Below the pieces are notes generated by a model. It was given only the letters and a program-made list of their open reading frames with translations. It was not told where the DNA came from and ran no database searches. Shown one piece after another: positions 7,353-21,272 of a DNA stretch of 64,000 nucleotides (its first letter is position 1; each line of letters opens with the position of its first letter). The position numbers and the translations under genes were made by a program. Source of the stretch: Escherichia coli phage phiS. The stretch lies in sequence record PP449093.1; one strand, 5' to 3'.

Positions 7353-7814
7353 ATGATTAATGAGCTAATAGAAAACTATGGATTCGTTAAATATTCATGT
7401 TTAGAGTGTAAAGATGGTGATGTGATTCTACCGCCTCAGAAGAACCGTTTAAATGTTCTTTACGCTATTGTTGTTGATGATGAACTGGTATACATTGGTC
7501 AGACTGTTAATCTCAGAAAGCGGATCAATTATTACCGGACTAGCATTAACAGACAAACACCAACAGCGGATACTCGCAAGAGTAAGAATATTCATAAGGC
7601 GCTAGAGGAAGGTAAGACAGTAACATTCTATTACCGACAGTGCTTTGAGTTGTACATCGAGAATCCAACGGGTAAGGATATTATAAGCACTGCCGATATC
7701 GAAGAACCTGTTTTGATCACCAAATTTAAACCAGAATGGAACACAAATTATGTCAACAAAAGAAAACAACAAAAAAGTTTTAGCATTGTTCAAAAATCTG
7801 ATGGTACTATGTGA
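7353..7814 (+). CDS. denA: Endonuclease II (GIY-YIG family)
   Basis: GIY-YIG core NVLYAIVVDDELVYIGQTVNLRKRINYYRTSINRQ closely resembles T4 EndoII as I recall it; position upstream of rnlA. Confidence 0.75.
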   Translation: MINELIENYGFVKYSCLECKDGDVILPPQKNRLNVLYAIVVDDELVYIGQTVNLRKRINYYRTSINRQTPTADTRKSKNIHKALEEGKTVTFYYRQCFELYIENPTGKDIISTADIEEPVLITKFKPEWNTNYVNKRKQQKSFSIVQKSDGTM

Positions 7815-13347: not shown

Positions 13348-14830
13348 TATCATTAACCAGCTTGCAGCGACCGACAAAACATCGCTGAAAGAAAAGATCC
13401 TGAAAGAATCCGCAAGTAATGAAACTCTGAAAGAATGCTTTTATCTGGCATATTGCAAACAGGTTACGTTTGGCGTAAAGAAATACGATAAACCATCGCG
13501 TTATTCGTCTGTATTGTCTTTATCCGGTGCATTACAGGTCTTTAAAAATAAACTTGCCACGCGTCAAGTAACTGGTAATGCAGCATTACAGCTAGTTACC
13601 GATACTCTGACTTGCTTGTCAGAGGATGATGCTAAAGTTGCAATGATGGTCCTGAATCGTGATCTGGAGTGTGGTTGTTCCGCTACCACTGCAAACAAGG
13701 TATGGAAGAAACTGATCCCCCAGCAACCGTGCCACCTTGCATCGTCATGTTCTGATAAGACTATTGCCAATATCAAATATCCGGCGTATGCACAACTTAA
13801 AAGCGATGGCGCTCGTGGTATGGCTGATATTGACGGGGAAACATTAGCAATCTATACCCGCTCAGGTAATACCTATCAAGGGCTTGATGATTTGTTTGCG
13901 GTTTTAGAGCGTCTACGAGGCCGTGGAATTGTTCTAGATGGCGAATTGGTATATATGCCTACCCTTTCGCAAACACCAGCGCAGAACTTCGTTGAGAGCG
14001 TTTATGATGGTACTCTGTCATGGATATTTGAAGAAGAGGAAATGCCATTAACGCCAGTAGCGGAAGCAGTGAAAGAATCCGTTGTTGCAGATCGTCAGAC
14101 CGGAAATGGTATCCTCAACAAATCACTTAAAGGAACTATTCCAAAAGAAGAAGCCCAATGTATTGTTTACACTGTCTGGGATGTTATCGACCGTGATGTG
14201 TATTACGGAAACGAGAAAGCAACGAAGCAATATAAAGATCGATTCGAAGAACTAAAACAGATTGTTGAAGAACTTAACGATCCTCGTGTTCAGATAATCG
14301 AAAATACTGTAGTTAACAATATCGATGAAGCTCGCGAAGTATATCATCGCTATGTAAACATGGGATTAGAAGGCATTATCCTTAAAAATTTACATGGTGT
14401 ATTTGAAGATCGTCGCAGTAAAGATCAGGTTAAATTTAAAGAAGTGATTGACTTCGACGCGGAAATTGTTGATGTATATCCGCATAGTAAAGATCCTAAT
14501 AAGGTAGGCGGTTTTACTGTCCGTAGTGCGTGCGGACGAATGATGACTAACACCGGATCGGGATTGACCGACACCACAACCGAAAAAGGCGATGATGGTA
14601 TTGAACGTGTGATTCCGTTTGACCGTCGAAATGAACTTGACCGAGAAATGTTATGGGCTGACCGTCATAACCTGATTGGAAAAGTCATTGAGATGACATG
14701 CAACGGGTATATCCGCAGCAAATCACGTAAAGAAGATGAACCGGAGTTCTCTTTATTTCTCCCAATCATAAAACGTATTCGCTACGACAAGACCACTGCA
14801 AATACAGTAAAAGAGGTATTCGATGTGTGA
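13334..14830 (+). CDS. 30: ATP-dependent DNA ligase
   Basis: Adenylation motif AQLKSDGARG (KxDG); overall resemblance to T4 gp30; RBS GAGGTGA. Confidence 0.95.
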   Translation: MSILNIINQLAATDKTSLKEKILKESASNETLKECFYLAYCKQVTFGVKKYDKPSRYSSVLSLSGALQVFKNKLATRQVTGNAALQLVTDTLTCLSEDDAKVAMMVLNRDLECGCSATTANKVWKKLIPQQPCHLASSCSDKTIANIKYPAYAQLKSDGARGMADIDGETLAIYTRSGNTYQGLDDLFAVLERLRGRGIVLDGELVYMPTLSQTPAQNFVESVYDGTLSWIFEEEEMPLTPVAEAVKESVVADRQTGNGILNKSLKGTIPKEEAQCIVYTVWDVIDRDVYYGNEKATKQYKDRFEELKQIVEELNDPRVQIIENTVVNNIDEAREVYHRYVNMGLEGIILKNLHGVFEDRRSKDQVKFKEVIDFDAEIVDVYPHSKDPNKVGGFTVRSACGRMMTNTGSGLTDTTTEKGDDGIERVIPFDRRNELDREMLWADRHNLIGKVIEMTCNGYIRSKSRKEDEPEFSLFLPIIKRIRYDKTTANTVKEVFDV

Positions 14831-15299
14831 TAATGAAGGGGCGAAAGCCCCTAAACCTAAAAAATTGTCAAAGAAAGAGCAACGCCAGATCCTGAAAATG
14901 AAATATGGTGGACGTTGTGCCTATTGTGGCGAGGAACTAGGGGATCGCTGGCACGCAGACCACATCAAACCAGTATTGCGACGCTCAAAGGTAGTCTATG
15001 ATGAAAATGGACGAATTGCCCGTAATGATGATGGATCGTGGAAGTATAAGGTTGTAGGAATGCATAAACCGGAGCATGATATACTTGATAACATGAATCC
15101 GGCGTGTGTGCAATGCAATCTTTACAAAAGCTGTATGGGCTTAGAATACTGGCGTAAGTGTATACGCGAGAACTTCCAGAAGTACATTCAGCACAATATG
15201 GGATTGCGAGCGGCTAAACGCTTTGGCTTGCTGTCAATTCATGACCAGCCAGTAGAATTTTATTTCGAAAAGTACGAGCGCGAGCATCAAGAAAAATAA
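14823..15299 (+). CDS. HNH nuclease (McrA-like zinc-finger HNH)
   Basis: CAYCG ... HADHIKP ... CVQCNLYK pattern typical of HNH nucleases. Confidence 0.65.
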   Translation: MCDNEGAKAPKPKKLSKKEQRQILKMKYGGRCAYCGEELGDRWHADHIKPVLRRSKVVYDENGRIARNDDGSWKYKVVGMHKPEHDILDNMNPACVQCNLYKSCMGLEYWRKCIRENFQKYIQHNMGLRAAKRFGLLSIHDQPVEFYFEKYEREHQEK

Positions 15300-15313
15300 T
15301 TCAAAAAAAGTTG

Positions 15314-15342
15314 TTGACAGGGGATCACCGATCCCCTATACT
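15314..15342 (+). promoter_or_regulatory. PeSL-like early promoter: TTGACA - 17 bp - TATACT
   Basis: Spacer is the perfect inverted repeat GGGGATC acc GATCCCC. Confidence 0.6.
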
Positions 15343-15387
15343 ACACACATCAAAACGAAACACACTTTCTTAAACGGAGAATCAAAA

Positions 15388-15555
15388 ATGTTCCAGACTA
15401 AAGCAGAATGCGAAGCATACATTGTAGCAAACCACGGTGAAGACTACCTGAAATTCGATATCGTAGTAGCACAGAAGATCACCGGAATGGTTGCAAAATA
15501 TCTGGGTGTTAAAGAAGGTTACTATCCAAGCAACGCACCAGAAATTAACAAATAA
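15388..15555 (+). CDS. Small protein (55 aa), paralog of 18645..18812
   Basis: Not in ORF track; MFQTKAECEAYIVANHGEDYLKFDIVVAQK...; near-identical second copy at 18645. Confidence 0.5.
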   Translation: MFQTKAECEAYIVANHGEDYLKFDIVVAQKITGMVAKYLGVKEGYYPSNAPEINK

Positions 15556-15558
15556 TAG

Positions 15559-15587
15559 TTGACAATGATTAAAGGGAGTAGTAAGAT
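15559..15587 (+). promoter_or_regulatory. PeSL-like early promoter: TTGACA - 17 bp - TAAGAT
   Basis: Inverted repeat GGGAGTA gtaaga TACTCCC. Confidence 0.55.
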
Positions 15588-15619
15588 ACTCCCATAAAGA
15601 CAACAAACGGAGAATCAAA

Positions 15620-15799
15620 ATGAAAGCTATCGAAGTTCAGAAGTACATGGAACTCATCATTGAAGGTAAAGCACATACAGTATTGACTACCCACGTAGGA
15701 TATGATAAAAATGTGCATATGCTGGTAGACAATATCGGTTGGATGAAGTTTAATCCTAACGAGAATGTACAAGCTCAAGAAATGACCATCCCTTTCTAA
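15620..15799 (+). CDS. Hypothetical small protein (59 aa)
   Basis: ATG with GGAG RBS downstream of PeSL. Confidence 0.4.
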   Translation: MKAIEVQKYMELIIEGKAHTVLTTHVGYDKNVHMLVDNIGWMKFNPNENVQAQEMTIPF

Positions 15800-15811
15800 G
15801 AGGAATATATT

Positions 15812-16090
15812 ATGATGCGAATTACTGCAACGCTGGATAAGACACACAAAGAAAGATTTTTCGGTATGATCTTAAAAACGCCGATTTTCGATAATTACCT
15901 TTATGTTGACTATGACGGTCACATTAGCTATAAATGTAAAAATGATATTCGTGATTCCTTTGGTGATAAATCACAAGCCGATATTCATGACCACTGGTGG
16001 AACCATGACGAACCTTTACGAGTTATCGCAGTTGATGTAAAAACAACAAAAGAAGCTGATAAGGTAGTGAATGATTATGAGCAAATTTAA
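15812..16090 (+). CDS. Small protein, member A of a 4-copy paralog family (HxHW motif)
   Basis: YLYVDYDGHISY ... HDHWW ... RVIAVDV shared with 16491, 16816 and 17513 ORFs. Confidence 0.5.
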   Translation: MMRITATLDKTHKERFFGMILKTPIFDNYLYVDYDGHISYKCKNDIRDSFGDKSQADIHDHWWNHDEPLRVIAVDVKTTKEADKVVNDYEQI

Positions 16091-16286
16091 AGAATACAAA
16101 GCATATCAACAGATTTTGCGAGTATACGCACCAGAGTTCGCCGAAAAGATGATGGAAGATGCATCAAAATGCCCGTCCTTTTCTGGAAACAAAAACCATT
16201 ATTCGACTGGTATTGTGTCATGGAAAGAAACCGCATATACTCAACAATGGATAGAGGTTTTCTCAAAAACTCTTGATTGGTGTTAA
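16077..16286 (+). CDS. Small protein, tandem paralog 1 (MSKFK family)
   Basis: MSKFKEYKAYQQI...MMEDA...WKETAY; paralog of next ORF. Confidence 0.45.
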   Translation: MSKFKEYKAYQQILRVYAPEFAEKMMEDASKCPSFSGNKNHYSTGIVSWKETAYTQQWIEVFSKTLDWC

Positions 16287-16288
16287 TT

Positions 16289-16504
16289 ATGAGCAAATTT
16301 AAAGATTATCGAGCATATAAAGCGATCTGCGATATATTCGATGAAAAGACCGCTCATGCAATGATGGAAGATGCAGAACAATATGAATCATTCGTCAATT
16401 CCAAAGATTGCACAGTAAACGGGATTGTGTGCTGGAAAGATACAAAGTATGAAGAAAAATGGATTACTGTGTATTACGGAGAACTAGAATATGAAATTAA
16501 CTAA
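16289..16504 (+). CDS. Small protein, tandem paralog 2 (MSKFK family)
   Basis: MSKFKDYRAYKAI...MMEDA...WKDTKY. Confidence 0.45.
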   Translation: MSKFKDYRAYKAICDIFDEKTAHAMMEDAEQYESFVNSKDCTVNGIVCWKDTKYEEKWITVYYGELEYEIN

Positions 16505-16811
16505 AAAGATTTTCCCAGAATTGCGTAACTGTCTGTTATTGGTTACTGAATATAAGCCGTATGCGATCTACTTGTATGTTGATGAAAATCTGAAAATCCG
16601 TTACTATGATTATACGTCTCCAGTGATGAAATCATTTGCTCACTCGATAGCAAATAACTGTATGAATCACAATCATTGGGTATCAGAAACGGATGACGAT
16701 GCGTCAGAAGTTGTAGTGGTTGCATGGAATCTATCACCAGCGGAAGCAGATCAAGCACGCATTAAGCATTATGCGAAAAACAATTGGTTTGACCTTATAA
16801 GTGAGGACTAA
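16491..16811 (+). CDS. Small protein, member B of the 4-copy paralog family
   Basis: ELRNCLLL...YLYVDENLKIRYYDY...HNHW...VVVVAWNL. Confidence 0.5.
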   Translation: MKLTKKIFPELRNCLLLVTEYKPYAIYLYVDENLKIRYYDYTSPVMKSFAHSIANNCMNHNHWVSETDDDASEVVVVAWNLSPAEADQARIKHYAKNNWFDLISED

Positions 16812-16815
16812 TATT

Positions 16816-17094
16816 ATGTTCAAAGTAGGTGATAAGTTTATTCTTAGTCGTGATATTCTACCTAATCTGAAAGGTTGTATCATCAATCCTAGTAAAAATT
16901 CATGGTTTTATCTGTTTATCGACGACAAACTGAATGTACGCGCCGAATATAAAGAAGGTCTTCGCACTGGCCTCGGTTTCTTTAACGATCACGATCATAG
17001 CCATTGGCTAAACGGTGGATTCGAAGCAACGGTGCTCGCGGTTGATGTGACCTACACAAACATCATAGAAAAATATCAAAAAATTATTTTATAA
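16816..17094 (+). CDS. Small protein, member C of the 4-copy paralog family
   Basis: FYLFIDDKLNVRAEY...HSHW...VLAVDVT. Confidence 0.5.
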   Translation: MFKVGDKFILSRDILPNLKGCIINPSKNSWFYLFIDDKLNVRAEYKEGLRTGLGFFNDHDHSHWLNGGFEATVLAVDVTYTNIIEKYQKIIL

Positions 17095-17100
17095 AAAGTG

Positions 17101-17129
17101 TTGACATAAGATCGGGTGTATAGCATAAT
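17101..17129 (+). promoter_or_regulatory. PeSL-like early promoter: TTGACA - 17 bp - CATAAT
   Basis: Inverted repeat GGGTGTAT agcataa TACACCC. Confidence 0.6.
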
Positions 17130-17175
17130 ACACCCATCGAAACGAGATACACTTTCTAACTAGGAGAATCAAATT

Positions 17176-17463
17176 ATGGCATACATCACCATCACTCTGA
17201 AAGTTAACAAATTTGCTCACGCTGCACACGAAACCGATAATGCAATCCGTAACAACAAGTTCGCACGTCTGGTACGCGATGCGGTAGCTAAAGAGTTCAA
17301 CTTCAAATTTGCCGATGGTAAAGTTATCACTAAATGGACTCATGACGGCGAAACTAAAGTAGAACTTGCTGACAACTTCGCAAATCAGGAATATGCACAC
17401 CGTCGCATTAATGAAATTATCAGCGATGAACTCTACTACGGTGTACAGGAAGGACTGTTTTAA
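17176..17463 (+). CDS. Hypothetical protein (95 aa)
   Basis: GGAG RBS, downstream of PeSL. Confidence 0.45.
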   Translation: MAYITITLKVNKFAHAAHETDNAIRNNKFARLVRDAVAKEFNFKFADGKVITKWTHDGETKVELADNFANQEYAHRRINEIISDELYYGVQEGLF

Positions 17464-17512
17464 TATATGGGGCGTTAAGCCACTTTTAATCTATCTGAAT
17501 GAGGATATCACT

Positions 17513-17821
17513 ATGAAAAATCTTGTAGTTGAATTTACCCGCGAGAATTTACCACAATTACGCAACTCTCTGCTTAAACTAGAGAACAGTAATTATGATG
17601 TATATTTTTACATCACAGAAGACCTAGAGATCCTTTACGCAGATTATCCAGGTCCGATCCGTACTTTCGAAACAGCATCAAAGTATAAAAATGTTTACGG
17701 TCATGAGCACTGGTTACGAGAAAACCCAGGTCGCAAGAAAGCACGCGTTAAAGTGCTGGCGATTGACATAACACCAGCATACGCCGACCGGATTGCACAG
17801 AATGATTATTTGTCTAAATGA
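17513..17821 (+). CDS. Small protein, member D of the 4-copy paralog family
   Basis: LPQLRNSLLKL...VYFYITEDLEILYADY...HEHW...VLAIDIT; GAGGA RBS. Confidence 0.5.
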   Translation: MKNLVVEFTRENLPQLRNSLLKLENSNYDVYFYITEDLEILYADYPGPIRTFETASKYKNVYGHEHWLRENPGRKKARVKVLAIDITPAYADRIAQNDYLSK

Positions 17822-17828
17822 TTTTATT

Positions 17829-17855
17829 AGCCGACCTTAGCGTCGGCTTTTTTAT
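17829..17855 (+). terminator. Rho-independent terminator
   Basis: AGCCGAC cttagc GTCGGCT followed by TTTTTT. Confidence 0.6.
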
Positions 17856-17877
17856 TGCATAAAATTTTAAAAAAGAA

Positions 17878-17906
17878 TTGACACCAGATCACGCCTATAG
17901 CATAAA
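17878..17906 (+). promoter_or_regulatory. PeSL-like early promoter: TTGACA - 17 bp - CATAAA
   Basis: Conserved leader ...cacccatcaaaacgagataccacttaGGAGaatcaaacaATG. Confidence 0.5.
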
Positions 17907-17947
17907 TACACCCATCAAAACGAGATACCACTTAGGAGAATCAAACA

Positions 17948-18217
17948 ATGGCACTGACTAAAACCACTACCAACTTTGCAAAACGTCACGGCTTCGACCT
18001 TGAAATCAATAGCTTTAACGATTACACCCTTCTGTGTGTATATGAAATCGAAAATGATTGCGAGTGGATGTTCAGCTATCGCGTAAACGAAGACGGATCT
18101 TTCACTTGGAACGGAAATATCTATCTTGCACAGGAAGTAAAAGAAGAACTTCCGGCGACCATCAAAGATGAGAAACATTTACGTCAAGTTTTAAAATTTA
18201 TTTCTGAAAATATCTAA
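17948..18217 (+). CDS. Hypothetical protein (89 aa)
   Basis: GGAG RBS, PeSL upstream. Confidence 0.45.
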   Translation: MALTKTTTNFAKRHGFDLEINSFNDYTLLCVYEIENDCEWMFSYRVNEDGSFTWNGNIYLAQEVKEELPATIKDEKHLRQVLKFISENI

Positions 18218-18225
18218 AAAAGTTG

Positions 18226-18254
18226 TTGACACTAAAGTAAGAACATAGCATAAT
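18226..18254 (+). promoter_or_regulatory. PeSL-like early promoter: TTGACA - 17 bp - CATAAT
   Basis: Consensus hexamers with 17-bp spacing. Confidence 0.55.
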
Positions 18255-18287
18255 ACACCCATACCGAAACGAACTGGAGAATCAAAA

Positions 18288-18569
18288 ATGAAATTCATCA
18301 AAGCAACCGAAATCCTGAAAAACAAAGAAGCATACATCGGAAACATCGTTGGTATGAACATTCGCGGCGCTGGTAGCCAGTGGACCAAACTGGTTGATGT
18401 TAAAGCTAAAGGCGATAAAATTGAGTTCACTGTAAAAATGCTTACGCATAACGCACATATGGGTATCAAGACAAAAACGATGGCAGCAGATAAAAGCATT
18501 AACTATCAGGATCTGGGTGATTGGCTGAACTGGTGCAAAATGCACAACATCGAAACTAATCACGAATAA
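18288..18569 (+). CDS. Hypothetical protein (93 aa)
   Basis: GGAG RBS, PeSL upstream. Confidence 0.45.
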   Translation: MKFIKATEILKNKEAYIGNIVGMNIRGAGSQWTKLVDVKAKGDKIEFTVKMLTHNAHMGIKTKTMAADKSINYQDLGDWLNWCKMHNIETNHE

Positions 18570-18582
18570 TTTAAAAAAGTTG

Positions 18583-18611
18583 TTGACGGGGATCGGGAGA
18601 TCCCCTATAAT
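18583..18611 (+). promoter_or_regulatory. PeSL-like early promoter: TTGACG - 17 bp - TATAAT
   Basis: Inverted repeat GGGGATC ggga GATCCCC. Confidence 0.6.
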
Positions 18612-18644
18612 ACACACATACCGAAACGAAATAGGAGAATCAAA

Positions 18645-18812
18645 ATGTTCGAGACTAAAGCAGCATGTGAAGCATATATCATTGAAACCTACGGTGAAGA
18701 TTATCTGAAATTTGACATTGTAGTAGCACAGAAGATTGTAGGGATGGTTGCGAAATACCTGGGTGTTAAAGAAGGTTACTATCCTAGCAACGCACCAGAA
18801 ATTAACAAATAA
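18645..18812 (+). CDS. Small protein (55 aa), paralog of 15388..15555
   Basis: MFETKAACEAYIIETYGEDYLKFDIVVAQK... Confidence 0.5.
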   Translation: MFETKAACEAYIIETYGEDYLKFDIVVAQKIVGMVAKYLGVKEGYYPSNAPEINK

Positions 18813-18826
18813 TTTTATAAAAAGTG

Positions 18827-18855
18827 TTGACAGGGGAGGATAACTCCCCTACAAT
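18827..18855 (+). promoter_or_regulatory. PeSL-like early promoter: TTGACA - 17 bp - TACAAT
   Basis: Inverted repeat GGGGAG gataa CTCCCC. Confidence 0.55.
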
Positions 18856-18895
18856 ACAACCATCAAAACGAGATACCACTTAGGAGAATCAAACA

Positions 18896-19147
18896 ATGGC
18901 TAACATCGAAACCGCAAAGAAAATCGCTAAAGACCTGAACGTTAAAGGCTTCCGTAAACTGAAATTACAGCGTGTACGCTACACCATCGGCAAACAGTGC
19001 TCTTTCATGAGCGAAGAAATTGCTAACAGCCTGATTGATAACCTGATTGCGGCTGGCTGGGAAGTTGCGGATCTGAAAACTTGCCGCGAACTGGCTAACA
19101 AAGGTCTTTTAGATTCTGTTACTATCAAACCAATGGGGGCAGCGTGA
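18896..19147 (+). CDS. Hypothetical protein (83 aa)
   Basis: GGAG RBS, PeSL upstream. Confidence 0.45.
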   Translation: MANIETAKKIAKDLNVKGFRKLKLQRVRYTIGKQCSFMSEEIANSLIDNLIAAGWEVADLKTCRELANKGLLDSVTIKPMGAA

Positions 19148-19680
19148 ACAATATAGACTGGAAGAAATACTTTAATTATGATCCTGATACTGGTATTCTT
19201 ACATGGAAGGAGAGAACAGATATACACCCATCAAGAATAAAACAATGGAATGCTGCATGGGCTGGAAAGGAGGTCGGGTCACTAGGAAGTGGTGGACGTT
19301 ATCTTGAATCGTCAATAAAAATTGACGGTAAAATTATTAACTACAAAGTTCATCGAGTATGTTATATTATCCACAATGGACCTATACCAGAAGGATATGA
19401 AGTAGACCATATTAATCACATTAAGACAGATAATAGAGCGGTGAATTTTGAACTTAAGACACATCAAGACAACATGAGGAATCAAACAAAATCTAAAAAG
19501 AATACAAGCGGACACAGTGGAATACATAAAAACAAATACAATAAATGGGTAGTTAGAATTGGCAGCGGTCGTCGTGGTGATAGAAAATATCTAGGATGCT
19601 TCGATACATTAGAAGAAGCTATAGAGGTTAGAACCAAAGCAGAAAGAGAGCATGGCTATCATGAAAACCACGGAAAGTAA
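19144..19680 (+). CDS. HNH endonuclease with C-terminal AP2-like DNA-binding domain; GTG start
   Basis: HNH core YEVDHINHIKTDNRAVNFELKTHQDNMRNQ; AP2-like GIHKNKYNKWVVRIGSGRRGDRKYLGCFDTLEEAIEVR. Confidence 0.7.
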   Translation: MNNIDWKKYFNYDPDTGILTWKERTDIHPSRIKQWNAAWAGKEVGSLGSGGRYLESSIKIDGKIINYKVHRVCYIIHNGPIPEGYEVDHINHIKTDNRAVNFELKTHQDNMRNQTKSKKNTSGHSGIHKNKYNKWVVRIGSGRRGDRKYLGCFDTLEEAIEVRTKAEREHGYHENHGK

Positions 19681-21242: not shown

Positions 21243-21272
21243 TTGACAGGGGGATCGGTGATCCCCTATAAT
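21243..21272 (+). promoter_or_regulatory. PeSL-like early promoter: TTGACA - 18 bp - TATAAT
   Basis: Inverted repeat GGGGGATC ggt GATCCCC. Confidence 0.55.

Follow-up and report, generated by a model that had tools for sequence, protein, structure and literature searches.

Two close copies of a 55-aa ORF, each behind its own promoter, lie in direct orientation about 3.2 kb apart in the genome of Escherichia coli phage phiS (PP449093.1), and an earlier note on this DNA had proposed that such a pair could mediate deletion or amplification of the genes between them. We asked whether the pair does recombine, and with what outcome. Our window is the whole 64,000-nt stretch analysed, and the region's 94–98% identity to Krischvirus genomes places it in that genus of RB49/phi1-like T4-type coliphages. 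The pair lies downstream of DNA ligase, within the hyperplastic region, and each copy is a single-gene cassette made of a PeSL (promoter-early stem-loop) and an ORFan (Table 1). The cassettes run from an A-rich tract through a consensus sigma70 promoter with a G/C hairpin as its 17-nt spacer to a short GGAG leader and the ORF, and the next PeSL begins at the stop codon of the preceding cassette ORF. Modular shuffling mediated by PeSLs is already known at this same locus from the PeSL and ORFan cassettes of RB49 and phi1 (Arbiol, Comeau, Kutateladze, Adamia and Krisch 2010, Genome Biol Evol 2:140; PMC2839356). Our analysis makes it very probable that the cassettes bearing the ORF205 and ORF191 orthologs recombine as direct repeats, deleting the block between them and leaving conversion patches behind.

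Table 1. Features of the duplicated cassettes and their surroundings in the window
Feature	Coordinates	Strand	Basis or remark
PeSL (promoter-early stem-loop) upstream of copy A	15294..15387	+	sequence, promoter scan, hairpin energy, alignment to RB49/FL04/MIZ4/JK32 PeSLs
Copy A, 55-aa ORF, RB49 ORF205 (RB49p205) ortholog, phrog_8009	15388..15555	+	
PeSL after copy A, TTGACA ... GGGAGTA-loop-TACTCCC	15559..15619	+	drives ORF204 ortholog
Intervening block, 10 small ORFan genes	15620..18569	+	
PeSL upstream of copy B	18563..18644	+	
Copy B, 55-aa ORF, RB49 ORF191 (RB49p191) ortholog, phrog_8009	18645..18812	+	
PeSL downstream of copy B, TTGACA at 18827, hairpin GGGGAG-GATAA-CTCCCC, TACAAT	18813..18895	+	drives ORF190 ortholog

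The genes of the intervening block start at 15620, 15812, 16077, 16289, 16491, 16816, 17176, 17513, 17948 and 18288 and are orthologous to RB49 ORF204–197, 194 and 193. Further PeSLs lie within the block at 17101, 17879 and 18226, and an intrinsic terminator is predicted at 17829–17848. The genes downstream of PeSLs had no match in Pfam or NCBIfam, and PHROGs matched only families of unknown function. A reading of the locus as an RNA element was not supported, and no Rfam family was found between 14800 and 19300.

Both 55-aa ORFs were recovered with the boundaries and translations originally given for them, and they are indeed close copies: an ungapped direct repeat pairs 15385–15556 with 18642–18813 at 87% identity over 172 nt, with 3,257 nt from start to start. 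The earlier note had put the repeat at about 250 bp; its direct orientation holds, but the specific repeat is shorter, at about 172 nt. The coding sequences differ at 23 of 168 nt and the proteins at 7 of 55 residues (48/55 identical), and the longest exact runs, of 28 and 26 nt, leave a single mismatch across 15502–15556. The paralogy ends on the 3′ side at the PeSLs that directly follow copy A (15559, 3 nt past the stop codon; hairpin −13.3 kcal/mol, z −4.4) and copy B (18813; hairpin −19.4 kcal/mol, z −5.4). No copy beyond A and B was detected in the window by tblastn, and with 87% identity over 172 nt and conserved orthologs the repeat cannot be due to chance. With a dN/dS of 0.095 (dS 0.67), both copies are under purifying selection. 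Across two-copy records, orthologs are at least 94.6% identical for copy A and at least 95.8% for copy B, while A against B stays at about 86–87%, and 44 phage records carry the copy A protein with 100% identity. Judged by these identities, A and B are old paralogs, much older than the divergence of the Krischvirus genomes that carry them.

A GGGGATC-type PeSL promoter does precede each copy, as had been proposed. Upstream of copy A, an AT-rich tract (15294–15313) leads into a promoter with 11 of 12 consensus matches (−35 TTGACA at 15314–15319, −10 TATACT at 15337–15342), whose 17-nt spacer is the hairpin GGGGATC-ACC-GATCCCC at 15320–15336 (centroid −12.8 kcal/mol, z −2.75), followed by the Shine-Dalgarno sequence GGAG at 15376–15379. 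The copy B promoter likewise lies downstream of an A-tract and scores 11 of 12 matches with a 17-nt spacer (−35 TTGACG at 18583–18588, −10 TATAAT at 18606–18611); its hairpin, GGGGATC-GGGA-GATCCCC, occupies 18588–18605 (centroid −13.4 kcal/mol, z about −2.7), with GGAG at 18634–18637. From −55 to the ATG, however, the two promoter and 5′UTR regions are only 77% identical, with gaps, and among the at least 11 PeSLs in the window the nearest relative of A is the one at 18827 (79%) and that of B the one at 21243 (83%). The two PeSLs being nearer to others than to each other, the specific paralogy spans only the Shine-Dalgarno region to the stop codon. A duplication of promoter plus gene, as first suggested, thus fits this genome, where copy A sits behind a different PeSL, less well than RB49-like genomes; in RB49 the PeSLs of ORF205 and ORF191 are 86% alike.

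The origin of the mismatched promoters can be read from their junctions. The copy A PeSL is of the HNH/ORF210 type (RB49 PeSL211/210 type) and is joined at GGAGAATCAAAAATG to the ORF205 ortholog, a fusion at the Shine-Dalgarno/ATG that arose because ORF210–206 were deleted; the native ORF205 promoter (PeSL206/205) is absent from the window. The copy B PeSL matches RB49 PeSL192/191, but on its left it is joined, within the AT-rich tract, to the end of ORF193, a phi1-type topology with ORF192 absent, as described for phi1 (PMC2839356). As far as sequence can tell, PeSL-PeSL junctions created both promoters of the pair, of the same kind as those in the deletion genomes described below. In RB49 itself, an activity of about 13,000 Miller units was measured for wild-type PeSL206/205, and as a terminator the PeSL211/210 hairpin was on a par with rrnB T1 (PMC2839356); by extrapolation from RB49/phi1, we infer that the PeSLs of the window would have promoter and terminator activity.

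How copy B was acquired is a matter of origin only and leaves the recombination behaviour of the pair unchanged. It is possible, though we think it the less likely course, that B is a xenolog, taken over complete with its PeSL from another phage, for example when a PeSL mini-circle integrated at a PeSL already present. This would fit a paralogy that ends exactly at the cassette borders, from Shine-Dalgarno/ATG to stop codon, a dS far above the divergence among Krischvirus genomes, and the absence of the single-gene B cassette alone from JK32, UPWr_E1 and Brandy. The gene family is also mobile, with a 78%-identical homolog on an unrelated contig and siphovirus homologs at 66–68% and 44% aa identity. 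The RB49 PeSLs, however, are as similar as the genes they serve, which fits co-duplication of promoter and gene, and no B-type donor lineage turned up outside Krischvirus in homolog searches that reached five protein clusters and two IMG/VR loci.

Evidence for recombination between the copies comes from two natural genomes, FL04 and Cognac, in which an ORF206-like gene is followed by one B-type copy and then by ORF190, the whole intervening block being absent. FL04 is 99.55% and 99.83% identical in its flanks to the two-copy genome KMB43, and Cognac is 99.1% and 98.1% identical to two-copy ECD7. Upstream of the copy, FL04 and Cognac are only 89% alike, indicating that the deletion events were independent. 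The switch from A-type to B-type sequence falls inside the GGGGATC stem in FL04 and within AGGAGAATCAAAATGTTC, in the Shine-Dalgarno/ATG region, in Cognac. Each deletion is exact and keeps the register: a single complete PeSL and a single complete gene are restored, the switch falling within sequence common to both copies, and 3.3–3.6 kb, or roughly 11 genes, are lost. The two genomes thus support the predicted loss of the intervening block, with crossovers inside the promoter-plus-gene unit. PeSL-bounded indels with chimeric PeSL junctions separate not only FL04 from KMB43 and Cognac from ECD7 but also the window from RB49, and the loss of the B cassette from JK32, UPWr_E1 and Brandy is a further case. 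Since neither natural crossover falls outside the PeSL/Shine-Dalgarno part, the coding repeat may add little to deletions; and with PeSLs only 77% alike and a longest exact coding match of 28 nt, the window genome is expected to undergo deletion less easily than RB49-like ones.

Both copies are present in 51 of 58 Krischvirus records, or 45 of 52 distinct ones (87%) once six GenBank/RefSeq duplicate pairs are collapsed, suggesting that the arrangement has been stable over the history of the genus. The distance from A to B in the two-copy records is 3,254–4,326 nt. Amplification, the other outcome that had been envisaged, was not borne out: three copies occur in none of the 58 Krischvirus records, and the 111 matching places are fully accounted for by 51 pairs, seven single copies and two swi2 siphovirus records. 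A metagenome scan yielded four contigs, three with both copies and one with copy A only, which may end before copy B; no new deletion junction was found among them.

These genomes also bear on the direction of change. We infer from parsimony and from the near-isogenic comparisons that it was deletion. It is improbable that the single-copy state of FL04 and Cognac is ancestral and that a 3.2–4.3 kb block with a second copy was inserted elsewhere, even though PeSL recombination has been proposed to be reversible (PMC2839356) and the junction sequences alone give no direction. The two-copy state is found in all sublineages; FL04 matches two-copy KMB43 at 99.6–99.8% in both flanks while departing from Cognac upstream; the junctions of FL04 and Cognac differ; and the split between A and B long predates the one that separated these genomes.

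Exchange within the genes themselves was examined by painting 26 diagnostic sites across 31 copies. Tracts of 3–6 consecutive paralog-type sites were found in Brandy, PTE-Eco09, KMB43, LF73P4 and MIZ2. Copy A of Brandy and of PTE-Eco09 carries six consecutive B-type sites, a contiguous placement with a chance of 21/230,230 = 9 × 10−5 for six among 26 sites (hand calculation), and copy A of KMB43 and LF73P4 carries three. In the other direction, PTE-Eco09 has three A-type sites at the 5′ end of copy B, and MIZ2 and LF73P4 have A-type patches at the 3′ end of theirs; copy B of the window has A-type nucleotides at diagnostic CDS positions 51, 117 and 120. The contiguous tracts show that sequence passes between the coding parts of A and B as well. 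The concern that identity might be too low for homologous recombination, with no variants to be seen, is thus answered by the conversion tracts and by the deletion variants FL04 and Cognac.

Together with published work on RB49/phi1, these observations suggest how the cassettes would behave. Host RNA polymerase would fire the PeSL promoters immediately after infection and the PeSL hairpin would attenuate read-through from upstream, so that each cassette would be transcriptionally self-contained. Since the PeSLs, and here also the coding sequences, are direct repeats, cassettes A and B would occasionally pair, presumably through the phage's general homologous recombination; no dedicated recombinase or integrase was identified in RB49/phi1, where exchange apparently proceeds by general homologous recombination on short homologies (PMC2839356). 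An A × B exchange would remove everything between, which in the window amounts to 3,257 bp, or ten ORFans and one copy, and if intramolecular would release the deleted DNA as a circle; non-crossover outcomes would leave gene-conversion patches. Circles with ORF191–194 and ORF192–193 were recovered from RB49 by inverse PCR (PMC2839356), the former containing the copy B ortholog, and both the deletion frequency and circle formation of the window genome are extrapolated from RB49/phi1.

The conservation of the pair and the conversion tracts might also be taken to mean that the copies and their PeSLs are dedicated brackets for excising the block as a packageable mini-circle, or that the 55-aa protein is a helper factor that recognises hairpins, such as the one Arbiol et al. 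postulated for the GGGG...CCCC hairpin (PMC2839356). We consider either very unlikely; were the first true, the 3.2-kb, ten-ORFan block would be a multi-gene unit that co-infecting phages could mobilise and exchange. That the repeats are instead inert, being too diverged (only 87% identical, with no exact run above 28 nt), and that the single-copy genomes are unrelated illegitimate deletions ending near the copies by chance, like the deletion in metagenomic contig L008 with end points inside ORFs rather than at PeSLs, is hardly credible, given that the FL04 and Cognac deletions are precise, in register and switch within shared sequence, and that contiguous paralog-type tracts in several genomes need A/B exchange.

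Recombination of the two cassettes as direct repeats, our preferred reading, follows the mechanism already described for RB49/phi1. Genus, hyperplastic region and the orthologs of ORF205, ORF191 and their PeSLs are the same. In both cases a GGGG...CCCC hairpin separates the −35 from the −10 of a sigma70 consensus promoter, and indels are bounded by PeSLs, the crossovers falling in the AT-rich tract, in the stem or between −10 and ATG. Here, however, the repeat spans the whole coding sequence and conversion tracts are documented inside genes, the natural deletions measure 3.3–3.6 kb against reported circles of 0.7–1.5 kb, and the window has its own recombinant PeSLs on both sides. The main text of PMC2839356 is silent on ORF205 and ORF191 as paralogs, with no instance of 'paralog' and no pertinent one of 'duplicat'. 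The PeSL-like motifs of other T4-like phages (Comeau, Arbiol and Krisch 2014; PMC4122927) are similarly promoter/terminator composites of hyperplastic regions that serve as exchange points between unrelated genes, but they are analogous and belong to the T4/PST and KVP40/nt-1 lineages, whereas those here are original RB49-type PeSLs. Lambdoid morons (Hendrix et al. 2000, via PMC2839356) are also solitary accessory genes with their own promoter and terminator and insulated expression, but they are not thought to move through regulatory sequences, while here the regulatory cassette is itself the recombination substrate. With integron cassettes the likeness (small promoter-served gene cassettes, proposed circular intermediates, a recurrent insertion site) is one of analogy only, as no integrase or attC-type site is known to be involved in PeSL exchange.

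The pairs KMB43/FL04 and ECD7/Cognac are near-isogenic natural examples of the published PeSL shuffling, with crossovers mapped to the nucleotide. They show that viable isolates can do without about 11 early ORFans, and that cassettes only 86–87% identical still exchange sequence in T4-type phages. The results are of use in the annotation of Krischvirus genomes and in their engineering for therapy, and open no new question.

As for the 55-aa protein, it had no match in Pfam, NCBIfam or PDB sequences, its only hit being phrog_8009 (function unknown), and a Foldseek search of its low-confidence model against BFVD returned only its own ortholog. That AlphaFold model, built on a five-sequence alignment, has a two-helix hairpin and a conserved disordered tail (pLDDT 67.5), and our best guess is that it may be a small helical protein that acts early, in host takeover or anti-defence.

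The two 55-aa ORFs picked out in the earlier note, here copies A and B, were both found in the window, and the direct duplication read from them is real. The ungapped repeat (15385-15556 against 18642-18813) spans 172 nt at 87% identity with a spacing of 3,257 nt, far exceeding chance, and a window-wide search found no further copies of the gene. The coding sequences differ at 23 of 168 nt and 7 of 55 amino acids, their longest exact runs being 28 and 26 nt. Copies A and B are orthologous to RB49p205 and RB49p191, respectively; both are assigned to phrog_8009 (function unknown), and Pfam, NCBIfam and PDB searches with the 55-aa proteins returned no match. In a shallow, low-confidence AlphaFold model, the protein takes the shape of a two-helix hairpin whose conserved tail is disordered.

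Features of the A/B locus in the window
Feature	Position	Strand	Details
PeSL (promoter-early stem-loop) A	15294-15387		
Copy A	15388-15555	+	55-aa ORF
Intervening block	15620-18569		10 small ORFans
Terminator	17829-17848	+	hairpin plus T-run; AGCCGAC-loop-GTCGGCT then TTTTTATT
PeSL B	18563-18644		
Copy B	18645-18812	+	55-aa ORF
HNH_3 ORF	19144-19680	+	178 aa; PF13392, E=3e-17; between ORF190 ortholog and ORF189-like gene

The genes for DNA ligase (gp30) and an HNH protein lie immediately 5′ of the locus. About 58 records of Krischvirus, the genus of RB49/phi1/JSE/ECD7-like T4-type coliphages, match 14800-19200 at 94-98% identity, with ELT4 the best-matching phage (97.7%). The locus is one of the ‘hyperplastic regions’ packed with small ORFans in RB49 and phi1 (PMC2839356). 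Arbiol et al. described PeSLs as strong sigma70-like early promoters with stem-loops terminating upstream transcription, and proposed that homologous PeSL-PeSL exchange deletes, inserts or swaps the intervening ORFans (PMC2839356). Promoter activity was shown for PeSL206/205, the native copy A promoter in RB49, and hairpin terminator activity for PeSL211/210, the type preceding copy A in the window; inverse PCR recovered ORF192-193 and ORF191-194 circles with crossovers between the -10 and the ATG, and exchange was ascribed to T4-type recombination, for which less than 50 bp of homology suffices (PMC2839356). The A/B pair fits this model exactly; in addition to what is seen in the published RB49/phi1 cases, its homology runs on through a whole gene. 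Mechanism and locus are both already published, and orthologs of A and B are annotated in dozens of genomes; the ORF205/ORF191 paralogy, two natural deletions in near-isogenic genomes with their crossovers mapped, and conversion tracts are modest new details.

Upstream of each copy stands a near-consensus sigma70 promoter whose 17-nt spacer is a GGGGATC-loop-GATCCCC hairpin (-12.8 kcal/mol for A, -13.4 for B). These promoter/leader segments belong to a large family, with 11 such elements extracted from the window, and the A and B promoters share a gapped identity of only 77%, their nearest relatives in the window being the elements at 18827 (79%, for A) and 21243 (83%, for B). The promoter 5′ of copy A is an HNH/ORF210-type PeSL whose leader is identical to RB49 PeSL211/210: within 15283-15390 the HNH gene is followed by a single chimeric PeSL that runs into the ORF205 ortholog at GGAGAATCAAAAATG, and ORF210-206 (about 1.5-2 kb) are missing relative to RB49, phi1 and ELT4, as they are in G5211, which has the same arrangement. 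Elsewhere, PTE-Eco09 retains only ORF210, and JK32 and Brandy have no ORF210. 5′ of copy B, the end of ORF193 meets RB49 PeSL192/191 in the AT-rich tract; ORF192 is absent, as in the phi1 topology (PMC2839356). In RB49, which has both native promoters, their similarity (86%) equals that of the genes. The ‘promoter-plus-gene cassette’ of the earlier note thus holds for the RB49-type arrangement; in the window, paralogy runs from the Shine-Dalgarno region to the stop codon only, and ends exactly where the next PeSL starts.

Were A and B to exchange in the window, 3,257 bp would be lost: 10 ORFans and one copy. For the window we infer promoter and terminator activity, how often exchange occurs, and the formation of a circle of some 3.3 kb; with promoters only 77% alike, exchange is probably less frequent here than in RB49-like genomes.

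Across genomes, PeSL stems are conserved and loops vary: GGGGAG-GATAA-CTCCCC at 18833-18849 is GGGGAG-ACACC-CTCCCC in L021 and L024, two compared genomes, and the GGGGATC...GATCCCC loops read ACC, GGTG, ACAG and ACGT (15320-15336 compared with RB49, JK32 and L024), a pattern consistent with selection on the hairpin and not on its sequence. Each of the two GGGGATC stems includes a pair of GATC (Dam) sites.

A copy census of 58 Krischvirus records found both copies in 51 (45 of 52 after six GenBank/RefSeq duplicate pairs were dropped), spaced 3,254-4,326 nt apart, and a single copy in the other seven. JK32, UPWr_E1 and Brandy have lost only the single-gene B cassette, so that ORF193 is followed directly by ORF190, and MIZ4 and MIZ5 carry a larger deletion. 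In FL04 and Cognac the entire interval is gone, an ORF206-like gene being followed by one B-type copy and ORF190. In its flanks FL04 matches two-copy KMB43 (spacing 3,621 nt) at 99.55% and 99.83% identity, and Cognac matches two-copy ECD7 (3,258 nt) at 99.1% and 98.1%; upstream of the locus, FL04 and Cognac are only 89% alike. Three-way alignment places the switch from A-type to B-type sequence inside the GGGGATC stem of the PeSL in FL04; in Cognac it falls within AGGAGAATCAAAATGTTC, which spans the Shine-Dalgarno sequence through the first codons. These comparisons indicate that two-copy ancestors underwent deletion twice, independently. The suggestion that the repeats could mediate loss of the block is therefore borne out by near-isogenic genomes, and amplification is supported by no record (three copies in 0 of 58). 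In the metagenomic contig L008 (IMGVR_UViG_3300045988_033703, 7613-7628), a different deletion, from about 17017 to about 18984 of the window, removes copy B; its end points lie inside ORF199-like and ORF190-like genes, the two BLAST pieces overlap by 16 nt, and the event could reflect either deletion at a microhomology or faulty assembly.

Between A and B, dN/dS is 0.095 and dS 0.67; among two-copy records, orthologs are at least 94.6% (A) and at least 95.8% (B) conserved, and 44 records carry the copy A protein at 100% identity. The duplication is thus much older than sequenced Krischvirus diversity, and selection maintains both copies. We painted 26 A/B-diagnostic sites in 19 genomes (31 copies). 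Six B-type sites in a row (nt 51-75) occur in copy A of Brandy and PTE-Eco09, and three (nt 69-75) in that of KMB43 and LF73P4; by hand calculation, the random placement probability of a contiguous run of six among 26 sites is 21/230,230. Copy B of PTE-Eco09 has three A-type sites at its 5′ end, giving residues 3 and 7 the A form, copy B of MIZ2 and LF73P4 has A-type 3′ patches, and in the window, copy B is A-type at positions 51, 117 and 120. Such tracts show that the coding copies exchange sequence despite 86-87% identity.

The pair possibly originated by in-genome duplication of a promoter-plus-gene cassette. That copy B was instead acquired as a foreign PeSL cassette seems rather unlikely; in its favour, the paralogy borders coincide exactly with cassette borders and the 55-aa family is present in unrelated phages. 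Some siphoviruses (genomes of 45-56 kb) encode homologs as small ORFs standing alone, with amino acid identities of 66-68% and 44%, one unrelated contig carries a 78% homolog, and tblastn matched SeSz-2, D10, Bas81, Sasha, Solent and PDP46. This distribution suggests that the gene has spread horizontally among unrelated coliphages and Salmonella phages. In Escherichia phage swi2 (L019), a standalone 51-aa ORF (1501-1656) lies near the terminase large subunit gene.

The hyperplastic region grew through repeated duplication. Within its deletable block, 15812-17821 holds older paralog families: four members at 15812, 16491, 16816 and 17513 (25-35% aa; phrog_15972/9345/17255) and a tandem pair at 16077 and 16289 (43% aa; phrog_8471). 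The HNH_3 ORF is probably a homing-endonuclease insertion; Cognac, FL04 and L008 lack segment 19148-19673, and ORF189.1 occupies this place in RB49. The terminator, the block's only intergenic plus-strand hairpin with a T-run, lies 3′ of the ORF197 ortholog and directly 5′ of the PeSL at 17879, a position at which RB49 has ORF196.1, 196 and 195, all three missing from phi1 and the window.
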